A DNA stretch of 63,084 bases, the filler included, from Nanobdellota archaeon (GTDB lineage Archaea; Nanobdellota; Nanobdellia; B33-G15): assembly GCA_003660925.1 (NCBI GenBank). It is 14 parts of 14 records of this genome, joined end to end, with 100 filler letters (N's around TTAATTAATTAA, not from the genome) between each part and the next. Parts side by side here need not be neighbours in the genome. Positions count along the whole stretch, not along the records: positions 51,775 to 55,544 come from QMVD01000060.1; 13 more parts are not named here. One strand, given 5' to 3'. Below the pieces are notes generated by a model. The model was not told where the DNA came from. It saw only the letters and a program-made list of their open reading frames with translations, and did no database searches. Both the position numbers and the translations under genes were made by a program. Of this stretch, positions 5,081 to 55,544 are shown piece by piece (positions within the stretch are counted from its first letter, which is position 1; every line of letters starts with the position of its first letter).

Positions 5081-5435
5081 ATGTGCTGCTGTGAGTAAGA
5101 CCATAAATCTCCCCCACTGGGCGAGTCCTGATGATGTCCTACATGCCTACCTCTTCGCCCACAGGCTGGGATGTAAAGGGATAACTATTTACAGAGAAGG
5201 GTCTAAGTCCAAGCAAGTCATCTACATGGGTTGGGGAAAGAGGAGCAGGCAGGAGGAGGTCATGAGGAGCATAGAGAACAGGACATTGGACGTGGCGAAC
5301 AAGCTGGGCATAAGGGTGGAAGAAGGGAGAGTGGAAGAGCACGTTTGTCCCAGCTGCGGGAGCGAAGATTTAATATACAAGAGTGGATGTGTTAAATGTC
5401 CAAGTTGTGGGTGGAGCGAATGCACCATAGCATGA
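5081..5435 (+). CDS. nrdJ: Class II ribonucleotide reductase, C-terminal fragment (version A)
   Basis: AVSKTINLP, GCKGITIYREGSK, C-terminal CPSCG...CPSCGWSEC. Confidence 0.88.
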
Positions 5436-5833
5436 GGAAATATCTGATCTTAGCCTTCGTCCTCACCTTGGTGATCATGATAGCTCAGAGGGTCTTCCCC
5501 ACAGGAGCTGCAGTCTCCAAGTACTACAAGGTGAAGCTAATTGTGGATGATGGGACTGGCTGGCAAGATAGACGTGAGTTATTGGTACACTCCAACTTGA
5601 CCGCTTTAGACGTCTTGAAACAAGAGTATGAAGTCAAGACGAAGTACGTAGAAGGTAAAGGATTGTTTGTGGTCGGAATCAAGACGAACAAGTGGGTGGA
5701 GGAGAAGGATCCCTACTTCTGGCACTTCTGCGTGAACGGAAAGCTCATGGAGGTGGGTGCCGATTCTTACCTGGTTGGAGACGGCGATAATCTCACCTTC
5801 GCTTATTCGGACATAGCCACGTGCCTGAGATGA
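5432..5833 (+). CDS. DUF4430-like secreted or membrane-anchored protein (version A)
   Basis: N-terminal TM helix; TALDVLK, FWHFCVNGK, VGADSY..DGD. Confidence 0.75.
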   Translation: MRKYLILAFVLTLVIMIAQRVFPTGAAVSKYYKVKLIVDDGTGWQDRRELLVHSNLTALDVLKQEYEVKTKYVEGKGLFVVGIKTNKWVEEKDPYFWHFCVNGKLMEVGADSYLVGDGDNLTFAYSDIATCLR

Positions 5834-6114
5834 GGTTGGAGGAGCTCGTGAAGAAAATCCCGAGAGGGAAGGTGACCACTTATAAAGAACTAGCCAAGGC
5901 CTTGGGAACAAGCCCTAGAGCGATAGGCCAGTTGTTGAAGAAGAGCAAGGGGATCCCGTGTCACAGGGTAGTAAGGTCCGACGGGACTTTGGGAGGTTAC
6001 AGGGGGAAGAACTGGAAGGAGAAGAAGAGGTTGTTGGAAAGAGAGGGAATCAAGATAAAAGGTAAGTTGATAGTGGACTTCGAAAAGGTCATGTTCAAGC
6101 TCTCCTCGGAGTGA
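5830..6114 (+). CDS. ogt: Methylated-DNA-protein-cysteine methyltransferase (version A)
   Basis: IPCHRVV active site; TTYKELA HTH. Confidence 0.9.
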   Translation: MRLEELVKKIPRGKVTTYKELAKALGTSPRAIGQLLKKSKGIPCHRVVRSDGTLGGYRGKNWKEKKRLLEREGIKIKGKLIVDFEKVMFKLSSE

Positions 6115-6137
6115 TGGAGGGTGAAAGTTCAAAAAAG

Positions 6138-6255
6138 TAGCGGGGGGAGGATTTGAACCTCCGACCTCCGGGTTTCCCTCGGCATCAAGATGGGCCGGTA
6201 TGAGCCCGGCGAGCACTCCAGGCTGCTTTAGGCTGGGCATCCCATCTACCCCGCT
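6138..6255 (-). tRNA. Initiator tRNA-Met(CAT) with two introns: 25 nt at 37/38 (6174-6198) and 18 nt at 10/11 (6228-6245)
   Basis: Removing both inserts gives the 75-nt cloverleaf AGCGGGG-UA-GAGC-AGCCUGGAGU-GCUC-G-CCGGG-CUCAUAA-CCCGG-AGGUC-GGAGG-UUCAAAU-CCUCC-CCCCGCU-A; A1-U72 and three G-C anticodon-stem pairs mark it as initiator; exons identical to version B. Confidence 0.95.
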
Positions 6256-6824
6256 ACCTGGAGGCCCCTTTTGTACCTCTGTACTTTCACAGAGTTGCTC
6301 TCCGTGTTAATAAAGTTAACGGGTACGTAGAGTCTGTACGAGGGAAGCCTATCTCTCTTTGATTTCTTTCTCTTCTTTAATACCACTCTCATTCCCAAGT
6401 CCTCAAGATATTTCTTGATGAGACACATCACTTTTTTGCTTGTATTAATGAGCATGATCATCCTCTCTGCAGGGTTGACATAGCCCTCAGCATCGATGAA
6501 CCCTGAGATGAAACCGATTTTAAACTCCTTAGAAGAATCAACCAAACTCTTCTTCTGAGCTATGAGGGCCTCATAAAGTCGTTTTGAGCGAACCCTCACC
6601 CTTATTGAATTATACCTCTTGTCCTTACGAAAAGATGGTTTCGTCCCAATTTTAAGCAGGAGTCCTCGTAGGAAATTGACTACATCTGTATCTTTTTCCG
6701 AGTTCAAAAAGAATTCTATGGAATAATGTCTCTGCTTTTTGTCATGGTACGCGTATCCGTCACCAAGAAAGAGACCAAAAAGATATCCTTTTTCTTTCTC
6801 GGTTAGCGAGTCCATCTTTACCAC
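6246..6824 (-). CDS. Free-standing two-motif LAGLIDADG homing endonuclease in the tRNA 5' leader (start GTG 6824 or ATG 6815)
   Basis: YLFGLFLGDG and GFISGFIDAEG motifs; AT-richer than neighbours; absent from version B. Confidence 0.9.
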   Translation of the reverse strand: MVKMDSLTEKEKGYLFGLFLGDGYAYHDKKQRHYSIEFFLNSEKDTDVVNFLRGLLLKIGTKPSFRKDKRYNSIRVRVRSKRLYEALIAQKKSLVDSSKEFKIGFISGFIDAEGYVNPAERMIMLINTSKKVMCLIKKYLEDLGMRVVLKKRKKSKRDRLPSYRLYVPVNFINTESNSVKVQRYKRGLQVAG

Positions 6825-6847
6825 GCTGTATTTGAGTGCTTGGCCTC

Positions 6848-6856
6848 TTTTTTAAA
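6848..6856 (-). promoter_or_regulatory. TATA box shared by endonuclease gene and tRNA-iMet (version A)
   Basis: AAAGTTTAAAAA, matching the element about 40 nt upstream of tRNA-iMet in version B. Confidence 0.6.
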
Positions 6857-6858
6857 CT

Positions 6859-8034
6859 TTAACTTATCACGTTCATTCTCGGGAAGAACAAGGATGGGGA
6901 AGCTATCTTGTCCTCTTGCCTCAGGTCATCCCCCACTTCCACTTCTTTGAGGAGTTCGAAGACGTTCCCCGAGATCATGACGTTCTTCAAGGGGATCCAC
7001 TTTCCACCTTTGATCAAGAAGGCGTTCTCAGTATTTAAGGAGAAATCCCCGTTGCTCTCATTGGCTGTGTGAACCCCAACGAGGTGTTTCACGTATATCC
7101 CTTCCCGTTCCAACTTCCTCCTCGGCTTCACTATCAGGTTCCTCTCCGAGACGTTCGGCCTCTTCCTGAGGTGAAGGAAGTTCCCTGTGCTTTCCTTCCT
7201 CTCCTTCCTCGCGGTCGTGAAGTCGTAAAGGAACCCTTTCACTTTCCCTCTCTTTATTAAGAGGGTTCTCTTACATGGGACACCTTCGCCGTCGAAGGGA
7301 GCGGTGTTCAACCCGAAGGGGAGCAAGCCATCATCATATATTGTGAGGTTCTTTGAGAATTCCCACCCAACTGCCTTCGAGACACCCTTCTGGACGAGGT
7401 CCGCGTGGAAGTGGGAGGAGATGATGGACAAAAGGTCGGCGGATGCTGTGGGACTCAGGGTAACGGGGTAAACCCCTTTCCTAATCCTCCTCTTTCCCAG
7501 TGAGAGCTTACAGAGTTCGTATGCTTTTTTTCCGACCCAGGAGAAATCCTCGAACTTCCGGGTGATATGGCTCTCGTATGAAATGGCGTTCCTGTGTTTC
7601 ACCTCCACCTCCCCGCTCAAGGAGGCCACTTTGTACCTCCCCTTTACCCCGTTCGAGTTCTCGAACTCCACTTCTCCGATCTCCCTGGAAAAAGAAGCAT
7701 AGGTGTTCCACGGGGTTATCAAGCTCTCAGCCAAGTCTAGGAGCTCCTTCTCCGTAAGCCCCAGGATCCTCTTGTCGAAGAGTTTCACCTTCTCATACTT
7801 AGAAGGTTTGGGTAACCCGAAGAACTCTGTCCGCTTCGCATATTTCAGCATTCGCTTCGTCCTCTTCAGGCATCTCTCCTCATCCGTTCCCGAGCAAAAG
7901 ACGCTCTTACCTTCCTTCGTCAGCCTGATACCCACAGTCTTCAACGCCTTTTCCTCCACCTCCCTGAGCTTCCCCTTCCTGAAAATGAAGGTCATCACGT
8001 TTCTCTTGGTGACTACCTTCTCAAGTCCTTCCAC
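6859..8034 (-). CDS. PmbA/TldE-family protein (version A)
   Basis: PFDGEGVP, STGN, GDFS, MISGNVFELL; downstream of TldD. Confidence 0.88.
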   Translation of the reverse strand: MEGLEKVVTKRNVMTFIFRKGKLREVEEKALKTVGIRLTKEGKSVFCSGTDEERCLKRTKRMLKYAKRTEFFGLPKPSKYEKVKLFDKRILGLTEKELLDLAESLITPWNTYASFSREIGEVEFENSNGVKGRYKVASLSGEVEVKHRNAISYESHITRKFEDFSWVGKKAYELCKLSLGKRRIRKGVYPVTLSPTASADLLSIISSHFHADLVQKGVSKAVGWEFSKNLTIYDDGLLPFGLNTAPFDGEGVPCKRTLLIKRGKVKGFLYDFTTARKERKESTGNFLHLRKRPNVSERNLIVKPRRKLEREGIYVKHLVGVHTANESNGDFSLNTENAFLIKGGKWIPLKNVMISGNVFELLKEVEVGDDLRQEDKIASPSLFFPRMNVIS

Positions 8035-9277
8035 CGACCACCGCCTCCCTCAACAACACGAAAGGCATCTTTTGGTCCACGGGAACGGTCTGTCCCAACT
8101 TCCCACAATAACCACTACCCACCCAATACCTCCGCTTCCCTATCAAAACTATGTCCTTGAGGGTTTTGAGTATGTCTCCTGAAAGGGAAACCCCTTTTAT
8201 GGGTTCAGTTATTTCTCCCTTCCTCACCAAGAAACCATACTTGGCGCTGAAAAGGAAGAAGCCGTGAGAAGGCTCTACCACTCCTCCTATGGAGTCCTTC
8301 ATGTAAACCCCATCCTTCATCTCCTCGAGCATCTCCTGAAGGTTGGAGTCCCCTTTCTCCAAGATCGTGTTGGACATCCTAGGGAGGGGCAAATGAGCAG
8401 CGCTCTCCGCCCTGCCGTTCCCAGGGATTCCCCTCAACTTCGCAGCGCTCTCCCTAGAGTGTAAGTAGTCCTTCAGGACGCCTTTTTCTATGAGGGTCCT
8501 CCTCCTCGCCTTGATCCCCTCATCATCCAGCGGAAAATAGCCGAAGCCCTTCTGAGTGGGGTCATCGTATAGGGTCACGATTTCAGAGGCTATTTTCCTT
8601 CCCAACTTCCCCTTCAGGACGCTGGTCCCTTCCAGAATTGCATCTCCCTCGCAAGCATGGCCTACTGCCTCATGGAAGAAAACACCCGCCAACTCCGGAT
8701 CCAGGATGACGGGCATCCTCCCAGCGGGGGCGTGTCTCGCTCTGCTCATCAACTTTAACTCCTCTACTAGCTTATTCACGTCCTTCTCGATGTCCTTCAT
8801 CCTCACGTTCTCGTTCAAGAAACCCTTTACCAAGAAGTTCATGTCCAACCCCTCGCTCCTTATGACCACCTTCACGTTAGTCCTCTTCACGTCGTAACTC
8901 GCTTCACTCCCCTCAGAGTTTTCGTATTCCACGTGCCTCTTGGCCTCGTAAATGCCAACGATCCTGTGCTTGATCACTTCATCATTCAGTAGCTCGTAGA
9001 CCTCGTCCACGAGATCGAGAGGCTGTTCCTCGAACTTCAGGGGTTTCTTAAGTTCAACCTTTTCCCACCTCTTGACCCTAACACCTCTCCCAATGGACAA
9101 CCTCTTGGCCTTCTCCAACATCTTGGGGTGAAATTCGTTAGAAACCATGAATCCAACCCCCTCATCCACGTACCTCACTCCAACCAAAGAGGTGGAATAA
9201 GAAATGGTGTTTACATCTCCCTCATCTATCTCCAACCCCCTGACCTCTTTTTTCTCCTTCCTTATGTCGAAGAACAT
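8021..9277 (-). CDS. tldD: TldD-family metalloprotease (version A)
   Basis: HEAVGHACEGD, PRMSNT, CGKLGQTVPV. Confidence 0.92.
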   Translation of the reverse strand: MFFDIRKEKKEVRGLEIDEGDVNTISYSTSLVGVRYVDEGVGFMVSNEFHPKMLEKAKRLSIGRGVRVKRWEKVELKKPLKFEEQPLDLVDEVYELLNDEVIKHRIVGIYEAKRHVEYENSEGSEASYDVKRTNVKVVIRSEGLDMNFLVKGFLNENVRMKDIEKDVNKLVEELKLMSRARHAPAGRMPVILDPELAGVFFHEAVGHACEGDAILEGTSVLKGKLGRKIASEIVTLYDDPTQKGFGYFPLDDEGIKARRRTLIEKGVLKDYLHSRESAAKLRGIPGNGRAESAAHLPLPRMSNTILEKGDSNLQEMLEEMKDGVYMKDSIGGVVEPSHGFFLFSAKYGFLVRKGEITEPIKGVSLSGDILKTLKDIVLIGKRRYWVGSGYCGKLGQTVPVDQKMPFVLLREAVVGGRT

Positions 9278-10058
9278 CTATCCAATGATGCGCTTTATCT
9301 TTTTCAACGTTTTCTTATCCTTCCACTCCAGAGCGTGTTCCAGGACCTCATAGATGGTCGACACGGGGATTACCTTAATCCCCTTAACCATGATGTCCTT
9401 CTCGTTCATCTTAGGGATTATGACGGCCTTCATGCCCGCCTCTTTAGCTGCCTCCACTTTAGCGTTTATAGAGCCAACAGGTAGGACCTCTCCCCTTATG
9501 CTAAGGGAACCTGTGAGGGCGACGCTCTGTTTTATGGGGATGTTCTCGAGGGCAGATATGACCGCTGCCGCTACGGAGATGCTCGCCGAGTCCCCCTCTA
9601 CCCCCTCATAAGTCTGGATGAATTGGATGTGAATGTCATAGTTAGAGATATCTCTCCCAGAATACTTCTTTATGATGGCGCTCACGTTCTCCACCGCTTC
9701 CTTAGCGATTTTACCCAGTTTCCCTGTGGCTATTATCCTCCCAGAACCCTTCTTCATGCTTGGGGCCAAGGTCGCTTCTATGGGTAAGACCAACCCCGTA
9801 TCCGAGCCGCTTATCACAGCCAGACCGTTCACCCTTCCAACAGCGACCCCAGTGTTCCTTATCACCTGATATTCCTTCTTCTCTTTCATGTATCTCTCCG
9901 CGACCTGTTGTTCTAGGGAGCTCGCTAACTTCTTGGCTTTCCTCACGTGCTTGGGCAGGACGTACTTCGCTCCCTCTTCCCTAGCTATGTCTCCTGCCAC
10001 TCTGACCAGCCCCCCTAAGTCTCTTAATTTTAAGGTGAGATAGCCCCTCCTTCCCGCC
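9278..10058 (-). CDS. lonB: Archaeal Lon protease (LonB), C-terminal fragment
   Basis: [11 protein letters not shown]er-Lys dyad; [17 protein letters not shown]. Confidence 0.93.
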
Positions 10059-51774: not shown

Positions 51775-52129
51775 ATGTGCTGCTGTGAGTAAGACCATAA
51801 ATCTCCCCCACTGGGCGAGTCCTGATGATGTCCTACATGCCTACCTCTTCGCCCACAGGCTGGGATGTAAAGGGATAACTATTTACAGAGAAGGGTCCAA
51901 GTCCAAGCAAGTCATCTACATGGGTTGGGGAAAGAGGGAGAGACAGGAAGAGGTCATGAGGAGTATAGAGAACAGGACATTGGACGTGGCAAGCAAGCTG
52001 GGCATAAGGGTGGAGGAAGGAAGGGTGGAAGAGCACGTTTGTCCCAGCTGCGGGAGCGAAGATTTAATATACGAGAGTGGATGTGTTAAATGTCCAAGTT
52101 GTGGGTGGAGCGAATGCACCATAGCATGA
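51775..52129 (+). CDS. nrdJ: Class II RNR, C-terminal fragment (version B)
   Basis: Near-identical to 5081-5435. Confidence 0.88.
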
Positions 52130-52527
52130 GGAAATACCTGACCTTGGCTTTTGTCCTCACCTTGGTGATCATAATAGCTCAGAGGGTCTTCCCCACAGGA
52201 GCTGCAGTCTCCAAGTACTACAAGGTGAAGCTAATTGTGGATGATGGGACTGGCTGGCAAGATAGACGTGAGTTATTGGTACACTCTAACCTGACCGCTT
52301 TAGACGTCTTGAAACAAGAGTACGAAGTCAAGACGAAGTACGTGGAAGGTAAAGGATTGTTCGTGGTCGGGATCAAGACGAACAAGTGGGTGGAGGAGAA
52401 GGATCCCTACTTCTGGCACTTCTGCGTGAACGGAAAGCTCATGGAGGTGGGTGCCGATTCTTACCTGGTTGGGGACGGCGATAATCTCACCTTCGCTTAT
52501 TCGGACATAGCCACGTGCCTGAGATGA
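52126..52527 (+). CDS. DUF4430-like protein (version B)
   Basis: 2 aa differences from version A. Confidence 0.75.
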   Translation: MRKYLTLAFVLTLVIIIAQRVFPTGAAVSKYYKVKLIVDDGTGWQDRRELLVHSNLTALDVLKQEYEVKTKYVEGKGLFVVGIKTNKWVEEKDPYFWHFCVNGKLMEVGADSYLVGDGDNLTFAYSDIATCLR

Positions 52528-52808
52528 GGTTGGAGGAGCTCGTGAGGAAAATCCCAGAGGGAAGGGTGACCACTTACAAGGAACTGGCCAGGGTCCTGGG
52601 AACCAGTCCCAGGGTGGTTGGCCAGTTGTTGAAGAGGAGCAAGGGGATCCCTTGTCACAGGGTAGTAAGGTCCGATGGGAGCTTGGGTGGTTACAGGGGG
52701 AAGAAATGGAGGGAGAAGAAGAGGTTGTTGGAAAGGGAGGGAATCAAGATAAAAGGTAAGTTGATAGTGGACTTCGAAAAGGTCATGTTCAAGCTCTCCT
52801 CAAGATGA
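52524..52808 (+). CDS. ogt: MGMT (version B)
   Basis: IPCHRVV. Confidence 0.9.
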   Translation: MRLEELVRKIPEGRVTTYKELARVLGTSPRVVGQLLKRSKGIPCHRVVRSDGSLGGYRGKKWREKKRLLEREGIKIKGKLIVDFEKVMFKLSSR

Positions 52809-52929
52809 CCTCCAGCGTGTCCCCTTCCTGAACCCCGAGGTGGCGGACTATGTTCCTCGGCACGACGAGATATCCCTCACAAATCGATGGGCCCTGAGCC
52901 CCACTGAGATGTAAAAATAATAGGAGCAT
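52789..52929 (-). CDS. 46-aa ORF with AbrB/SpoVT-like C-terminal half (version B only)
   Basis: GYLVVPRNIVRHLGVQEGDTLEV; GAGGAG upstream of ATG. Confidence 0.45.
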   Translation of the reverse strand: MLLLFLHLSGAQGPSICEGYLVVPRNIVRHLGVQEGDTLEVILRRA

Positions 52930-53048
52930 CCGCTCCTCTTGAGTTGTAGTTCAGCCCCTTTTGCGGTTCTTTTCGTGTCGTCTTTTGGAGGGAGGTACGT
53001 ATGTTAAAAAAGTAGCGGGGGGAGGATTTGAACCTCCGACCTCCGGGT

Positions 53049-53741
53049 TTCTCTCGGCATCGTCTCTACCACTAACTCCTTCCGCTGTTTTAAAGCTTTT
53101 GATTCAAGATTTCTCTCAGAACTTGGAGTTTTTCCTTCCCGTATCTGAGATTTCCTTTTCCTCTCCCTATCTTCACCCCGTGACTGAATCCTATCTTCTC
53201 GAAGAACTTCTTCAAGTTATCTCTTCTGCTGATGATTATTCCTAACCTGTCATAATCTTCACGTGCGGGGATCCCAATTTCACGATGCAGTTCCAAAAGA
53301 AAGTTTCTAACTTTCTCATCTTTTTGTCGCCCCCTCAACTTAATCGAACGTTTCTTCAGATCTATCGAAATGGTGCCTTCATCGTCCCAAAAAGCCCTTA
53401 AGAATTCCGTGATTTTCTTTTCATCTTCTTCCAAGAATTTTGCCAGTAAATCTAAATTTGATGTGAAATCGTTGAGAAACTTCCAAAGGAATTTACTCGA
53501 AAGCTCAACCTCATAAACGTCATTCTCCCTGCGTCTCTCATAGAAATGCGCATCAACCAAACGTTTTACGTCCGTCTTAAACTGTTCGATAAGGACGTAA
53601 TTTTTGTTGGCAAAACCTACGATGTAAGAACCTGCATGGCATCTGAGCCATCCATCAAACAGAACATGGGAAATTAGCCTTGCCAAGCCCATAATGAGAA
53701 GAATTCTAATTCATTTAAAAAGGGTAGGGGGACGATGCCAG
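53049..53741 (-). mobile_element. BHB-type tRNA intron encoding a homing endonuclease
   Basis: Bulges UA|C and AA|A around central helix CUCA/AGAG; closing stem UGGCAUCGUC/GACGAUGCCG plus CUACC/GGUAG; ORF in the loop. Confidence 0.9.
53090..53692 (-). CDS. Intron-encoded two-motif LAGLIDADG endonuclease
   Basis: RLISHVLFDG and EFLRAFWDDEG motifs; C-terminal KFFEKIGF. Confidence 0.9.
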   Translation of the reverse strand: MGLARLISHVLFDGWLRCHAGSYIVGFANKNYVLIEQFKTDVKRLVDAHFYERRRENDVYEVELSSKFLWKFLNDFTSNLDLLAKFLEEDEKKITEFLRAFWDDEGTISIDLKKRSIKLRGRQKDEKVRNFLLELHREIGIPAREDYDRLGIIISRRDNLKKFFEKIGFSHGVKIGRGKGNLRYGKEKLQVLREILNQKL

Positions 53742-53820
53742 TATGAGCCCGGCGAGCACTCCAGGCTGCTCTACCCCGCTACTTAAACGCCCCTACCCAT
53801 ATTCGAGTAATTTGCTATCG

Positions 53821-53828
53821 TTTTTAAA
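53821..53828 (-). promoter_or_regulatory. TATA box of tRNA-iMet (version B)
   Basis: TTTAAAAA about 40 nt upstream of the mature 5' end. Confidence 0.6.
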
Positions 53829-53830
53829 CT

Positions 53831-55006
53831 TTAACTTATCACGTTCATTCTCGGGAAGAACAAGGATGGGGAAGCTATCTTATCCTCCTGTCTCAGGTCA
53901 TCCCCCACTTCCACTTCCTTGAGGAGTTCGAATACGTTCCCCGAGATCATGACGTTCTTCAAGGGGATCCACTTTCCTCCTTTGATCAAGAAGGCGTTCT
54001 CAGTATTTAAGGAGAAATCCCCGTTGCTCTCATTGGCTGTGTGAACCCCAACGAGGTGTTTCACGTATACCCCTTCCCGTTCCAACTTCCTCCTCGGCTT
54101 CACTATCAGGTTCCTCTCCGAGATGTTCGGCCTCTTCCTGAGGTGAAGGAAGTTCCCGGTGCTTTCCTTCCCCTCCTTCCTCGCGGTCGTGAAGTCGTAG
54201 AGGAACCCTTTCACTTTCCCTCTCTCTATTAAGAGGGTTCTCTTACATGGGACACCTTCGCCGTCGAAGGGAGCGGTGTTCAACCCGAAGGGGAGCAGGC
54301 CATCATCGTATATGGTGAGGTCCTTGGAGAATTCCCACTCAACCGCCTTTGAGATGCCCTTCTGGACGAGGTCCGCGTGGAAGTGAGAAGAGATGATGGA
54401 CAAAAGGTCAGCGGATGCTGTGGGGCTCAGGGTGACGGGGTAAACCCCTTTCCTGATCCTCTTCTTTCCTAGTGAGAGCTTACAGAGTTCGTATGCTTTT
54501 TCTCCGACCCAGGAGAAATCCTCGAACTTCCGGGTGATATGGCTCTCGTATGAAATGGCGTTCCTGTGCTTCACCTCCACCTCCCCGCTCAAGGAGGCCA
54601 CTTCGTACTTCCCTCTCACCCCGTTCGAGTTCTCGAACTCCACTTCTCTGATCTCCCTGGAGAAGGAGGCGTAGGTGTTCCACGGGGTTATCAAGCTCTC
54701 AGCCAAGTCTAGGAGCTCCTTCTCCGTAAGCCCTAGGATCCTCTTGTCGAAGAGCTTTATCTTCTCATACTTAGAAGGTTTGGGTAGCCCGAAGAACTCT
54801 GTCCGCTTCGCGTATTTTAGCATTCGCTTCGTCCTCTTCAGGCATCTTTCCTCATCCGTCCCCGAGCAGAAGACACTCTTACCTTCCTTCGTCAGCCTGA
54901 TACCCACAGTCTTCAACGCCTTCTCCTCCACCTCCCTGAGCTTCCCCTTCCTGAAAATGAAGGTCATCACGTTTCTCTTGGTGACTACCTTCTCAAGTCC
55001 TTCCAC
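53831..55006 (-). CDS. PmbA/TldE-family protein (version B)
   Basis: About 14 aa differences from version A. Confidence 0.88.
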   Translation of the reverse strand: MEGLEKVVTKRNVMTFIFRKGKLREVEEKALKTVGIRLTKEGKSVFCSGTDEERCLKRTKRMLKYAKRTEFFGLPKPSKYEKIKLFDKRILGLTEKELLDLAESLITPWNTYASFSREIREVEFENSNGVRGKYEVASLSGEVEVKHRNAISYESHITRKFEDFSWVGEKAYELCKLSLGKKRIRKGVYPVTLSPTASADLLSIISSHFHADLVQKGISKAVEWEFSKDLTIYDDGLLPFGLNTAPFDGEGVPCKRTLLIERGKVKGFLYDFTTARKEGKESTGNFLHLRKRPNISERNLIVKPRRKLEREGVYVKHLVGVHTANESNGDFSLNTENAFLIKGGKWIPLKNVMISGNVFELLKEVEVGDDLRQEDKIASPSLFFPRMNVIS

Positions 55007-55544
55007 CGACCACCGCCTCCCTCAACAACACGAAGGGCATCTTTTGGTCCACGGGAACGGTCTGTCCCAACTTCCCACAATAACCACTACCCACCCAATA
55101 CCTTCGCTTCCCTATCAAAACTATGTCCTTGAGGGTTTTGAGTATGTCTCCTGAAAGGGAAACCCCTTTTATGGGTTCAGTTATTTCTCCCTTCCTCACC
55201 AAAAAACCATACTTGGCGCTGAAGAGGAAGAAGCCGTGAGAAGGCTCTACCACTCCTCCGATGGAGCCTTTCATGTAAACCCCATCCTTCATCTCCTCGA
55301 GCATCTCCTTAAAGTTGGAGTCCCCTTTCTCCAAGATCGTGTTGGACATCCTAGGGAGGGGCAAATGAGCAGCGCTCTCCGCCCTGCCGTTCCCAGGGAT
55401 TCCCCTCAACTTCGCAGCGCTTTCCCTAGAGTGTAAGTAGTCCTTCAGGACGCCTTTTTCTATGAGGGTCCTCCTCCTCGCCTTGATCCCCTCATCATCT
55501 AAGGGAAAATAGCCGAAGCCCTTCTGAGTGGGGTCATCGTATAG
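54993..55544 (-). CDS. tldD: TldD, C-terminal part (version B)
   Basis: Near-identical to version A; cut by contig end. Confidence 0.9.
   Translation of the reverse strand, partial: LYDDPTQKGFGYFPLDDEGIKARRRTLIEKGVLKDYLHSRESAAKLRGIPGNGRAESAAHLPLPRMSNTILEKGDSNFKEMLEEMKDGVYMKGSIGGVVEPSHGFFLFSAKYGFLVRKGEITEPIKGVSLSGDILKTLKDIVLIGKRRYWVGSGYCGKLGQTVPVDQKMPFVLLREAVVGGRT

Follow-up and report, generated by a model that had tools for sequence, protein, structure and literature searches.

An endonuclease gene in an intron of an archaeal initiator tRNA gene, probably spliced at a bulge-helix-bulge motif and mobile by homing

Many archaeal rRNA introns encode LAGLIDADG homing endonucleases, and in the available text of PMC4496867 endonucleases are mentioned for rRNA introns only. 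The 39 archaeal group I introns treated in the accessible part of PMC6125680 also all lie in rRNA genes. As far as the available texts of two reviews go, neither has a protein-coding archaeal tRNA intron (PMC4090602 and, in its table of tRNA gene types, PMC4033280), and the terms homing, LAGLIDADG and open reading frame do not occur in that of the former. Homing and LAGLIDADG are likewise absent from the available text of a survey of 228 Asgard tRNA introns (PMC11291895) and from that of a paper which leaves the route by which archaeal tRNA introns arrive open (10.64898/2026.10.13.758758). The arrival and spread of these introns is an openly unsolved question. Here we describe the initiator tRNA (tRNA-iMet) gene of a Nanobdellota archaeon (GenBank assembly GCA_003660925.1), which is split by a 693-nt intron carrying a gene for a LAGLIDADG protein. 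It lies in a window of 63,084 nt, by which we mean the whole stretch of DNA that was analyzed, a chain of small contigs all taken from one assembly (672 kb, 77 contigs, 88.5% complete); the contig in question, C60, is window 51775..55544 (QMVD01000060.1). Endonuclease-coding introns of the bulge-helix-bulge (BHB) type are known from rRNA genes and apparently undescribed for tRNA genes. Our full-text literature searches, which lay mostly outside subscription journals and preprint supplements, found no protein-encoding archaeal tRNA BHB intron, in line with an earlier note on this DNA, made from the sequence alone, whose author knew of no described tRNA equivalent.

We think it probable that this is a mobile tRNA intron of the homing type, spliced by EndA at a BHB motif and carrying the gene of an I-DmoI-like endonuclease, and that the short introns found at the same site in relatives are its remnants. 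The tRNA-iMet(CAU) gene, at 53780..53013 on the minus strand, is complete. Its 5' exon (53742..53780, 39 nt, tRNA positions 1-37) ends in CTCATA and holds the anticodon CAT, and its 3' exon (53013..53048, 36 nt, positions 38-73) starts with ACCCGG and does not encode the CCA end. The intron (53049..53741) stands between them at the canonical position 37/38. That the gene is split there by 693 nt had been claimed in the earlier note, and is confirmed for the exons by sequence reading, ARAGORN with introns allowed (ARAGORN -i) and in-silico splicing, and for the intron by the first two of these together with the fold. ARAGORN -i reports one tRNA, c[53012,53780], with a 693-nt intron and calls it Ser(aga), which is a miscall because the program slides the intron boundary by 3 nt; when a script joins the two exons at 37/38 from their coordinates, the result is a perfect cloverleaf of 76 nt for tRNA-Met(cat). 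The gene has the hallmarks of archaeal initiators: a 5-nt variable loop, an A1-U72 pair and, at the base of the anticodon stem, three G-C pairs. The same exon sequences, without a difference, are found in the initiator tRNA genes of G401, a genome of the same genus, and of C49, a twin contig described below. The hallmarks and this identity together establish the gene as tRNA-iMet, and the identity also argues that the split tRNA is not a chance match. In split tRNA genes proper the halves lie at separate loci and are joined in trans; here both halves are on one contig, 693 nt apart, and a single contig from run X1 covers both. The intron has 40.8% G+C, against about 51% in the flanks.

In the minimum-energy fold of the whole 769-nt precursor, the acceptor, D, T and anticodon arms are all kept. 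The anticodon stem is extended by a 3-bp CUC/GAG, AUAC (a 4-nt 5' bulge) and AAA (a 3-nt 3' bulge) are unpaired, and beyond the bulges comes a closing stem of 10 bp, which is the long closing stem that the earlier note had described. Its 5' arm UGGCAUCGUC lies at 53731..53740 and its 3' arm GACGAUGCCG at 53055..53064, both on the minus strand, with pair probabilities of 0.55 for a U-G pair and 0.89-1.0 for the other nine. The canonical motif (hBHBh') consists of two 3-nt bulges with a 4-bp helix between them and a helix on either side, and the cut positions follow from the BHB rule. When A35, which stands opposite an A, is counted into the central helix, the fold becomes a 3-4-3 bulge-helix-bulge with cuts UA/C and AA/A. 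On the minus strand the 5' splice bulge is then U36 A37 / C (53741..53743), with a predicted cut after 53742 that follows from the fold, the BHB rule and the intron-less junction in G401. The 3' strand of the central helix is AGAG (53051..53054), in which GAG pairs with C32-U33-C34 and the A faces A35, as seen in the fold and its pair probabilities. The 3' splice bulge is A A / A38 (53048..53050), and fold and BHB rule put its cut after 53049. The motif is near-canonical, in that the central helix has three pairs and one A-A mismatch; the junction strings quoted in the earlier note, which had used the same word, are present in the sequence and agree with the fold. Pair probabilities are at least 0.975 in the anticodon stem and 0.40 in the central helix, the latter being this low because GAGAG offers two registers. 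The A-A mismatch is also kept in the short 37/38 introns of the twin contig and of G417, a genome of another family. Since these iMet genes are the sole iMet pattern matches in their genomes, the host enzyme would evidently tolerate the mismatch.

The genome encodes both EndA (PF01974, 98.1 bits against a cut-off of 27, in a 170-aa ORF on contig C6) and RtcB (PF01139, 574 bits). With a bulge-helix-bulge at the junctions, a cloverleaf restored by removal of the intron and the two enzymes encoded, the locus has the features of a BHB intron, and it would be spliced by EndA and RtcB. A further potential pairing was seen near the motif. The 5' leader GGGTAGGGG (53798..53790) is perfectly complementary over 9 nt to CCCCTACCC (53730..53722), which lies in the intron just after the closing stem. 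This pairing is unused in the minimum-energy fold, and the related locus L074, discussed below, has a similar CCCCTA-type stretch where CCCCTACCC lies here.

The ORF inside the intron (53090..53692, stop included, on the minus strand) is intact and codes for 200 aa. It matches Pfam LAGLIDADG_3 (PF14528) in two stretches, with an E-value of 2.7e-10 and 40.8 bits against a cut-off of 22.5. Its AlphaFold (AF2) model (pLDDT 96.7, pTM 0.92) has two alpha-beta-beta-alpha-beta-beta-alpha halves in one chain. A Foldseek search of the PDB places I-DmoI at the top (E 2.9e-9, TM 0.59/0.65), and the best 20 listed rows (ranks 1-26, TM 0.57-0.67) are all I-DmoI chains except for E-DreI at rank 23. Lower matches include I-Tsp061I at rank 38 and the bI3 maturase at rank 39, as well as I-AniI and intein endonucleases. 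A phmmer search of the protein against PDB sequences gave nothing meaningful (best E 0.63). Just three columns, D13, G14 and E105, are invariant when the protein is aligned with 34 relatives (35 sequences in all); D13 and E105 come directly after helices 3-12 and 91-105 of the model, and they are probably equivalent to D21 and E117 of I-DmoI. Among 1.84 billion representatives HMMER found 236 relatives at E<=1e-3, 49 at E<=1e-10 and 6 at E<=1e-30. The profile match above cut-off, the two-domain fold and the acidic residue ending each LAGLIDADG helix are those of a monomeric LAGLIDADG enzyme, and the model points to an I-DmoI-like monomeric two-domain homing endonuclease which would cleave DNA. 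The intact, two-motif ORF of 200 aa on the strand of the tRNA had been noticed earlier, and it stands by ORF call, Pfam match and I-DmoI fold match; the last of these also bears out the comparison made at that time with the LAGLIDADG-coding BHB introns of rRNA genes, for example that of I-DmoI. Upstream of the ORF, the TATA-like TTTTTAAAT (53713..53721, minus strand), centred ~25 nt from the ATG, was picked out by sequence reading as a candidate internal promoter. The usual archaeal distance between TATA box and start fits a leaderless mRNA, and the spacing here would suit such a message for the endonuclease.

The intron does not seem to be a product of the assembly. A Logan contig of 829 nt from run X1 covers 53022..53850, including both junctions, with 0 differences, and pieces of the intron interior with 0-1 differences occur in runs of three other studies (X3, 151 and 240 nt; X4, 293 nt; X5, 151 nt). 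An artefact is thereby made very unlikely, and the junctions, whose lack of read support the earlier note had named as grounds for giving up its interpretation, are both supported by the X1 contig.

Genes of this kind are easily overlooked. Default ARAGORN and Rfam at the gathering score find no tRNA at 53013..53780, which is how the earlier note had expected standard tRNA finders to behave, and even at E<=10 Rfam gives no tRNA at the locus, just an 18-nt T-arm-like fragment. By the available text of its description, tRNAscan-SE models short BHB introns (PMC8450103). There is a systematic blind spot, default finders and Rfam missing such genes entirely, and because of it initiator or other tRNAs can seem absent from small archaeal genomes. 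Two other results of ARAGORN with introns allowed belong here. Over the whole assembly (41 calls) it gave no elongator tRNA-Met and no other tRNA with a CAT anticodon. It also called a tRNA-Arg(ccg) with a 294-nt intron at window c[23523,23900], which we regard as a probable false positive, the sequence not being credible as a tRNA by eye.

The same site can be followed through close relatives. Over 1029 + 1727 nt, C60 shares 95-96% identity with its twin contig C49 (window 5081..10058); the two begin at the same base, and the assembly contains no second pair of this kind. Run X1 has joints of the C49 type as well as the C60 form. Given the 95-96% identity and the presence of both joint forms in this run, we read C49 and C60 as two strains assembled together. 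Two introns, neither with an ORF, interrupt the tRNA-iMet allele of C49 (6138..6255, minus strand), one of 25 nt at 37/38 (6198..6174) and the other of 18 nt in the D-arm (6244..6227). The exons of this allele are identical to those of C60, and the last 13 nt of its 25-nt intron match the long intron in 12/13 positions. In G401 the iMet gene has the D-arm intron and no 37/38 intron. The site therefore holds 693 nt in C60, 25 nt in C49 and 0 nt in G401, which is the presence/absence pattern of a mobile intron.

A wider view was gained by searching 61 related genomes with a 12-nt pattern for the iMet anticodon arm, which matched in 14 of them; 10 of the 15 matches are iMet genes. In eight of these 10 genes the 37/38 intron has no ORF of at least 40 aa. 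That of G417 is a 29-nt hairpin with the stem core GGCATC/GATGCC, and its 12 contiguous 3'-end bases are identical to the long intron; those of G418, G275, G411, G413 and G419 are 13-90 nt long. G383 (L040 1513..1916) has a 404-nt 37/38 intron with a 120-aa ORF that starts in a LAGLIDADG-like stretch; with no Pfam family at E<=1, this ORF was not counted as an endonuclease. From such comparisons the long intron looks like a hairpin intron with a gene in its loop, and the short ones may be its remnants, or the reverse. Some related iMet genes (L036, L037, L039 and L053) have up to three introns, in the D-arm, at 37/38 and in the T-arm. The neighborhood of the tRNA gene differs between the twin contigs as well. 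A 204-nt segment of C60 (52802..53005) is replaced by 23 other letters on C49, a second indel that adjoins the tRNA, and this segment holds an ORF of 46 aa (52789..52929, minus strand) which is AbrB/SpoVT-looking by sequence reading.

The twin contig also has an endonuclease gene at its initiator tRNA, in a free-standing form. Directly upstream of the C49 allele lies a two-motif LAGLIDADG ORF of 192 aa (6246..6824, minus strand; Pfam LAGLIDADG_3 E 5.5e-16, Hom_end E 1.8e-8), whose stop codon falls in tRNA positions 8-10, and just downstream of this cassette is the 18-nt D-arm intron, at tRNA position 11/12. At the start of the ORF (about 6827..6816) a 12-nt remnant matches the tRNA 5' end in 10/12 bases. 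The remnant was recognized by eye at the expected place, with an estimated chance of about 0.002 over 50 positions, and blastn-short did not recover a 12-nt tRNA 5' end upstream of the C49 ORF. The same 192-aa cassette is found upstream of iMet in G401. It looks as if the cassette brought along a fresh front end for the tRNA together with a mini-intron that would shield it.

The genome has four LAGLIDADG loci, of which three are at tRNA genes: the iMet intron, the C49 cassette and an intron in tRNA-Phe(GAA). The last (G000:C18:1023..1750, plus strand, off the window; L049) is 652 nt long and interrupts the gene at the non-canonical position 30/31, where it could be placed because the tRNA-Phe gene of G183, a genome of the same family, is uninterrupted. 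It is entirely filled by a LAGLIDADG ORF of 218 aa (Pfam E 2.2e-11); the ATG begins with the first base of the intron, and the TGA overlaps the anticodon. When the three tRNA-linked proteins were compared in pairs by BLASTP, no significant similarity was seen, so they are not recent copies of each other. The fourth locus, the sole one away from tRNA genes, is a LAGLIDADG intein in a CDC48-type AAA ATPase (G000:C32; L088 214..2799, off the window). Just one short EndA turned up in this genome, even though its tRNA introns include some at 30/31 and in the D-arm; unusual introns may be hiding further tRNAs, or else this EndA may be broad in specificity.

Related introns occur in other genomes too. 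The closest genomic relative, L074 (titled MAG: Candidatus Iainarchaeum archaeon), is an iMet gene with a 657-nt 37/38 intron and an endonuclease gene 49% identical to ours. Its closing stem, GGGCACCGCCC/GGGCGGTGCCC, is fully paired and differs in sequence from the stem here, UGGCAUCGUC/GACGAUGCCG, so that the change is compensatory. Between the flanks of L074 and the genome studied here there is no similarity, and the genome of L074 has no other iMet pattern match. A further protein, P0003 (42% identical, intact), has an N-terminal start which is the translation of an exon-intron junction of the L074 type, and for this reason it is probably intron-borne as well. L054 (39%), on a metagenome contig, lies in a 654-nt 37/38 intron of tRNA-Gln(UUG), the anticodon arm of which shares GGGCT..ACCCG with iMet. 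Related elements are therefore present in an unrelated genome (L074) and in another host gene (L054), as would be looked for in a mobile intron. Together with the tRNA-Phe gene of the genome itself, they show this kind of element recurring in other tRNAs and in other DPANN genomes, which could not be seen in the earlier note.

Other relatives of the enzyme lie next to structural RNA genes. On metagenome contigs, L051/L052 and L053 (38-40%) adjoin iMet genes with 37/38 mini-introns, L053 being tail to tail with its iMet gene, and L055, L057, L059, L062 and L064 are found 0-64 nt upstream of tRNA genes, most of which bear introns, and L076, L078 and L080, from the genome collection, directly upstream of intron-bearing tRNAs. 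In a sample of 401 genomes of the phylum (0.5-1.8 Mb), 36 give a hit at E<=1e-5, a count that takes in our own genome and G360, an unpublished one. None of the 29 loci fetched from this sample is intronic by ARAGORN, and when 19 were scanned with Rfam, five adjoined 5S rRNA genes and one a tRNA-Val. The titles of the records holding relatives name Iainarchaeum, Nanoarchaeota, Aenigmatarchaeota and Micrarchaeota. With these titles, the splicing enzymes of archaeal type and the small genomes of the phylum sample, the host can be placed as a DPANN-type archaeon of small genome. As judged from where the relatives lie, the endonuclease family is associated with the genes of small structural RNAs and is found inside introns in the minority of cases. 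Five relatives that are 26-36% identical (L005, L009, L010, L014 and L018) lie ~10-340 nt from 5S rRNA genes and would be a 5S-rRNA-linked branch of the same family. Two 5S matches near these are about 146-148 nt long, which suggests small insertions.

Our favored reading, an EndA-spliced intron that moves by homing, can be laid out as a series of steps. The pre-tRNA would be transcribed. Its exons, according to the folding, then adopt the cloverleaf, while base pairing between the two ends of the intron builds the BHB and the 10-bp stem. EndA, the gene of which is present, would then cut both bulges, after A37 and before A38, and RtcB would join the exons to give the strain's only initiator tRNA and would probably circularize the intron. 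Either the excised intron or a leaderless mRNA initiated from the TATA-like box could serve as the message for the endonuclease. The enzyme would cut intron-less initiator-tRNA genes around the anticodon-arm DNA, and repair from the intron-bearing copy would constitute homing, a step that we infer from the endonuclease family, the presence/absence polymorphism and the relatives. Eventually the ORF would decay and be deleted. What stays behind would be a non-coding hairpin intron, short but with unchanged ends, and in time this too may disappear.

Several observations weigh against this reading. The central helix, as described, has just three Watson-Crick pairs beside its A-A mismatch, at a pair probability of 0.40, and just one EndA gene was found, of the short 170-aa kind. 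Short EndA enzymes are said, in the available text of PMC5829648, to need canonical motifs. The runs which list the stretch include none from RNA, so that spliced tRNA and excised intron enter our account as predicted products. The assembly being 88.5% complete, there may be a second initiator tRNA gene. The enzyme gene has one copy in the genome and few close relatives, 3 by word index. Most relatives are free-standing, the intronic ones numbering one of 21 metagenome loci other than our own, one of eight genome loci and none of 29 phylum-sample loci. The endonuclease copy of L074 carries one frameshift at an A-run and the frame of L054 has no ATG inside the intron, so some members of the family appear to be decaying. 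Finally, DNA contigs of X1 and X5 contain an exact exon-exon joint (53048 to 53742, skipping 693), which we did not count as the intron-less allele of this strain. Its two sides are just 40 and 23 nt long and it may belong to other archaea, given these short sides and an exon depth in bins 10-30x that of the flanks.

Other explanations have to be set against the same evidence. The endonuclease gene could be a lodger which entered, by itself, the loop of a short hairpin intron that was older and had been inherited vertically, the intron itself being immobile and the target of the enzyme being palindromic hairpin DNA. ORF-less hairpin introns with the same ends do exist, in G417 and the twin contig. 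In this class the iMet genes commonly have an intron of 13-90 nt at 37/38, and in eight of the 10 that were examined the intron at this site has no ORF reaching 40 aa; the relatives of the enzyme, for their part, are mostly free-standing genes which move on their own. However, G401 has no 37/38 intron at all, so the short intron is not simply ancestral. Additionally, the L074 intron has the whole build in common with ours, down to the CCCCTA-type stretch after the stem, amid unrelated flanks, and a related enzyme sits in the 37/38 intron of a different tRNA (L054). A gene moving by itself is thus unlikely in our view, while keeping some weight. Less probable still, to our mind, is a spliced intron that survives as an immobile relic or whose protein has been domesticated, the enzyme being inactive or a maturase-like or DNA-binding protein. 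The single copy of the gene, the decay of related copies and the presence of the bI3 LAGLIDADG maturase among the fold matches (rank 39) would fit with this. Against it are the intact ORF with both catalytic acidic residues kept, and invariant in the 35 sequences; the polymorphism between strains that are 95-96% identical; and the near-identical copies in runs of three other studies. BHB splicing, moreover, is established as needing no maturase.

A tRNA gene killed by the insertion, with a functional initiator tRNA elsewhere, is a still weaker candidate and would come as a surprise to us. The incompleteness of the assembly (88.5%) and the imperfect central helix leave some room for it, but the exons show no damage and have the same sequence as in relatives, and the insertion occupies position 37/38 precisely, together with both 3-nt bulges and the 10-bp stem. 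Within the assembly, the pattern for the iMet anticodon arm matches just twice, on the two twin contigs, which gives one match per strain, and L074 is likewise the sole match in its genome. Hardly credible, finally, is a self-splicing group I or II intron or a chimera of the assembly. LAGLIDADG-bearing group I introns do occur in archaeal rRNA genes, according to the accessible part of PMC6125680. Here, however, no Rfam intron family matches on 52900..53900 even at E<=10, and the ORF leaves exactly 49 + 41 nt of the intron non-coding, the sizes that the earlier note had given as about 49 and 41 nt and rightly judged too small for a ribozyme. The independent X1 contig that crosses both junctions with 0 differences, along with the interior pieces in three other runs, speaks against a chimera.

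If the intron is indeed a mobile one, as we favor, an endonuclease-bearing intron of iMet suggests how tRNA introns could spread. One tRNA site holds all the stages of a homing cycle, namely occupied, with the ORF lost and the ends kept, and empty. These stages are seen in strains that are 95-96% identical and in near relatives, which makes the question testable. We also entertain, more tentatively and with some doubt, the possibility that homing endonucleases are a general route by which archaeal tRNA introns arrive. Endonuclease-bearing BHB introns or free-standing cassettes would then invade tRNA genes, and the ORF would decay and be deleted, so that the short non-coding tRNA introns now catalogued would be remnants of endonuclease introns. 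Long introns would be intermediates on the way to split tRNAs, as an internal promoter and a long closing stem would allow split tRNA genes to arise by rearrangement inside the intron, and the initiator tRNA of Nanoarchaeum equitans could be such a case. The same proposal would explain tRNAs that seem to be missing in DPANN archaea.

A comparison with the known systems helps to place the locus. The ordinary short 37/38 introns of archaeal tRNAs resemble it in position, BHB and dependence on EndA, and the ends of those in the twin contig and G417 are homologous to the ends here, whereas they are non-coding and tens of nt long. In bacteria, an intron in the anticodon loop of initiator tRNA carries a homing endonuclease, so that the type of tRNA is the same and the enzyme is presumably aimed at anticodon-arm DNA in both cases. 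The bacterial intron is self-splicing and its enzyme is not known to be a LAGLIDADG protein, while the iMet intron described here has no ribozyme and would depend on EndA and RtcB of the host. The arrangement on the twin contig, for its part, recalls the tRNA-Thr locus of Caldiarchaeum subterraneum, where a tRNA fragment is followed by an inserted ORF and a tRNA with a new intron (PMC3293823). In both, a remnant of the tRNA 5' end and an inserted ORF precede an intact tRNA, which has a small intron where the insertion took place. In the available text, the Caldiarchaeum case is explained by integration of the integrase type and its ORF is not called a homing endonuclease, and it is not an intron-borne arrangement.

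The split tRNAs of N. equitans, a set of Glu, His, Lys and iMet (10.64898/2026.05.13.725050), include the tRNA species studied here. Complementary sequences adjoining the exon ends form a relaxed BHB in split tRNAs, as given in the accessible part of PMC4033280, and the 10-bp closing stem is their counterpart in cis. The halves here are contiguous, 693 nt apart, and no rearrangement is seen. With its long closing stem and candidate internal promoter, the iMet intron offers a concrete form in cis of what split tRNA genes do in trans. A further known system is that of the LAGLIDADG BHB introns of rRNA genes, of the I-DmoI and I-Tsp061I type, and the locus is built like the mobile rRNA introns of hyperthermophiles. 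These share with the iMet intron the splice motif, a BHB followed by a long stem with the ORF in its loop, the fold of the enzyme (I-DmoI as best match, I-Tsp061I at rank 38), and the presumed splicing by EndA and ligase as well as the presumed homing. The protein differs from the rRNA-intron enzymes in being too far from any solved enzyme for phmmer. The host differs as well, and in this case is a tRNA of 75 nt, interrupted at the canonical tRNA site 37/38 by an intron nine times its own length.

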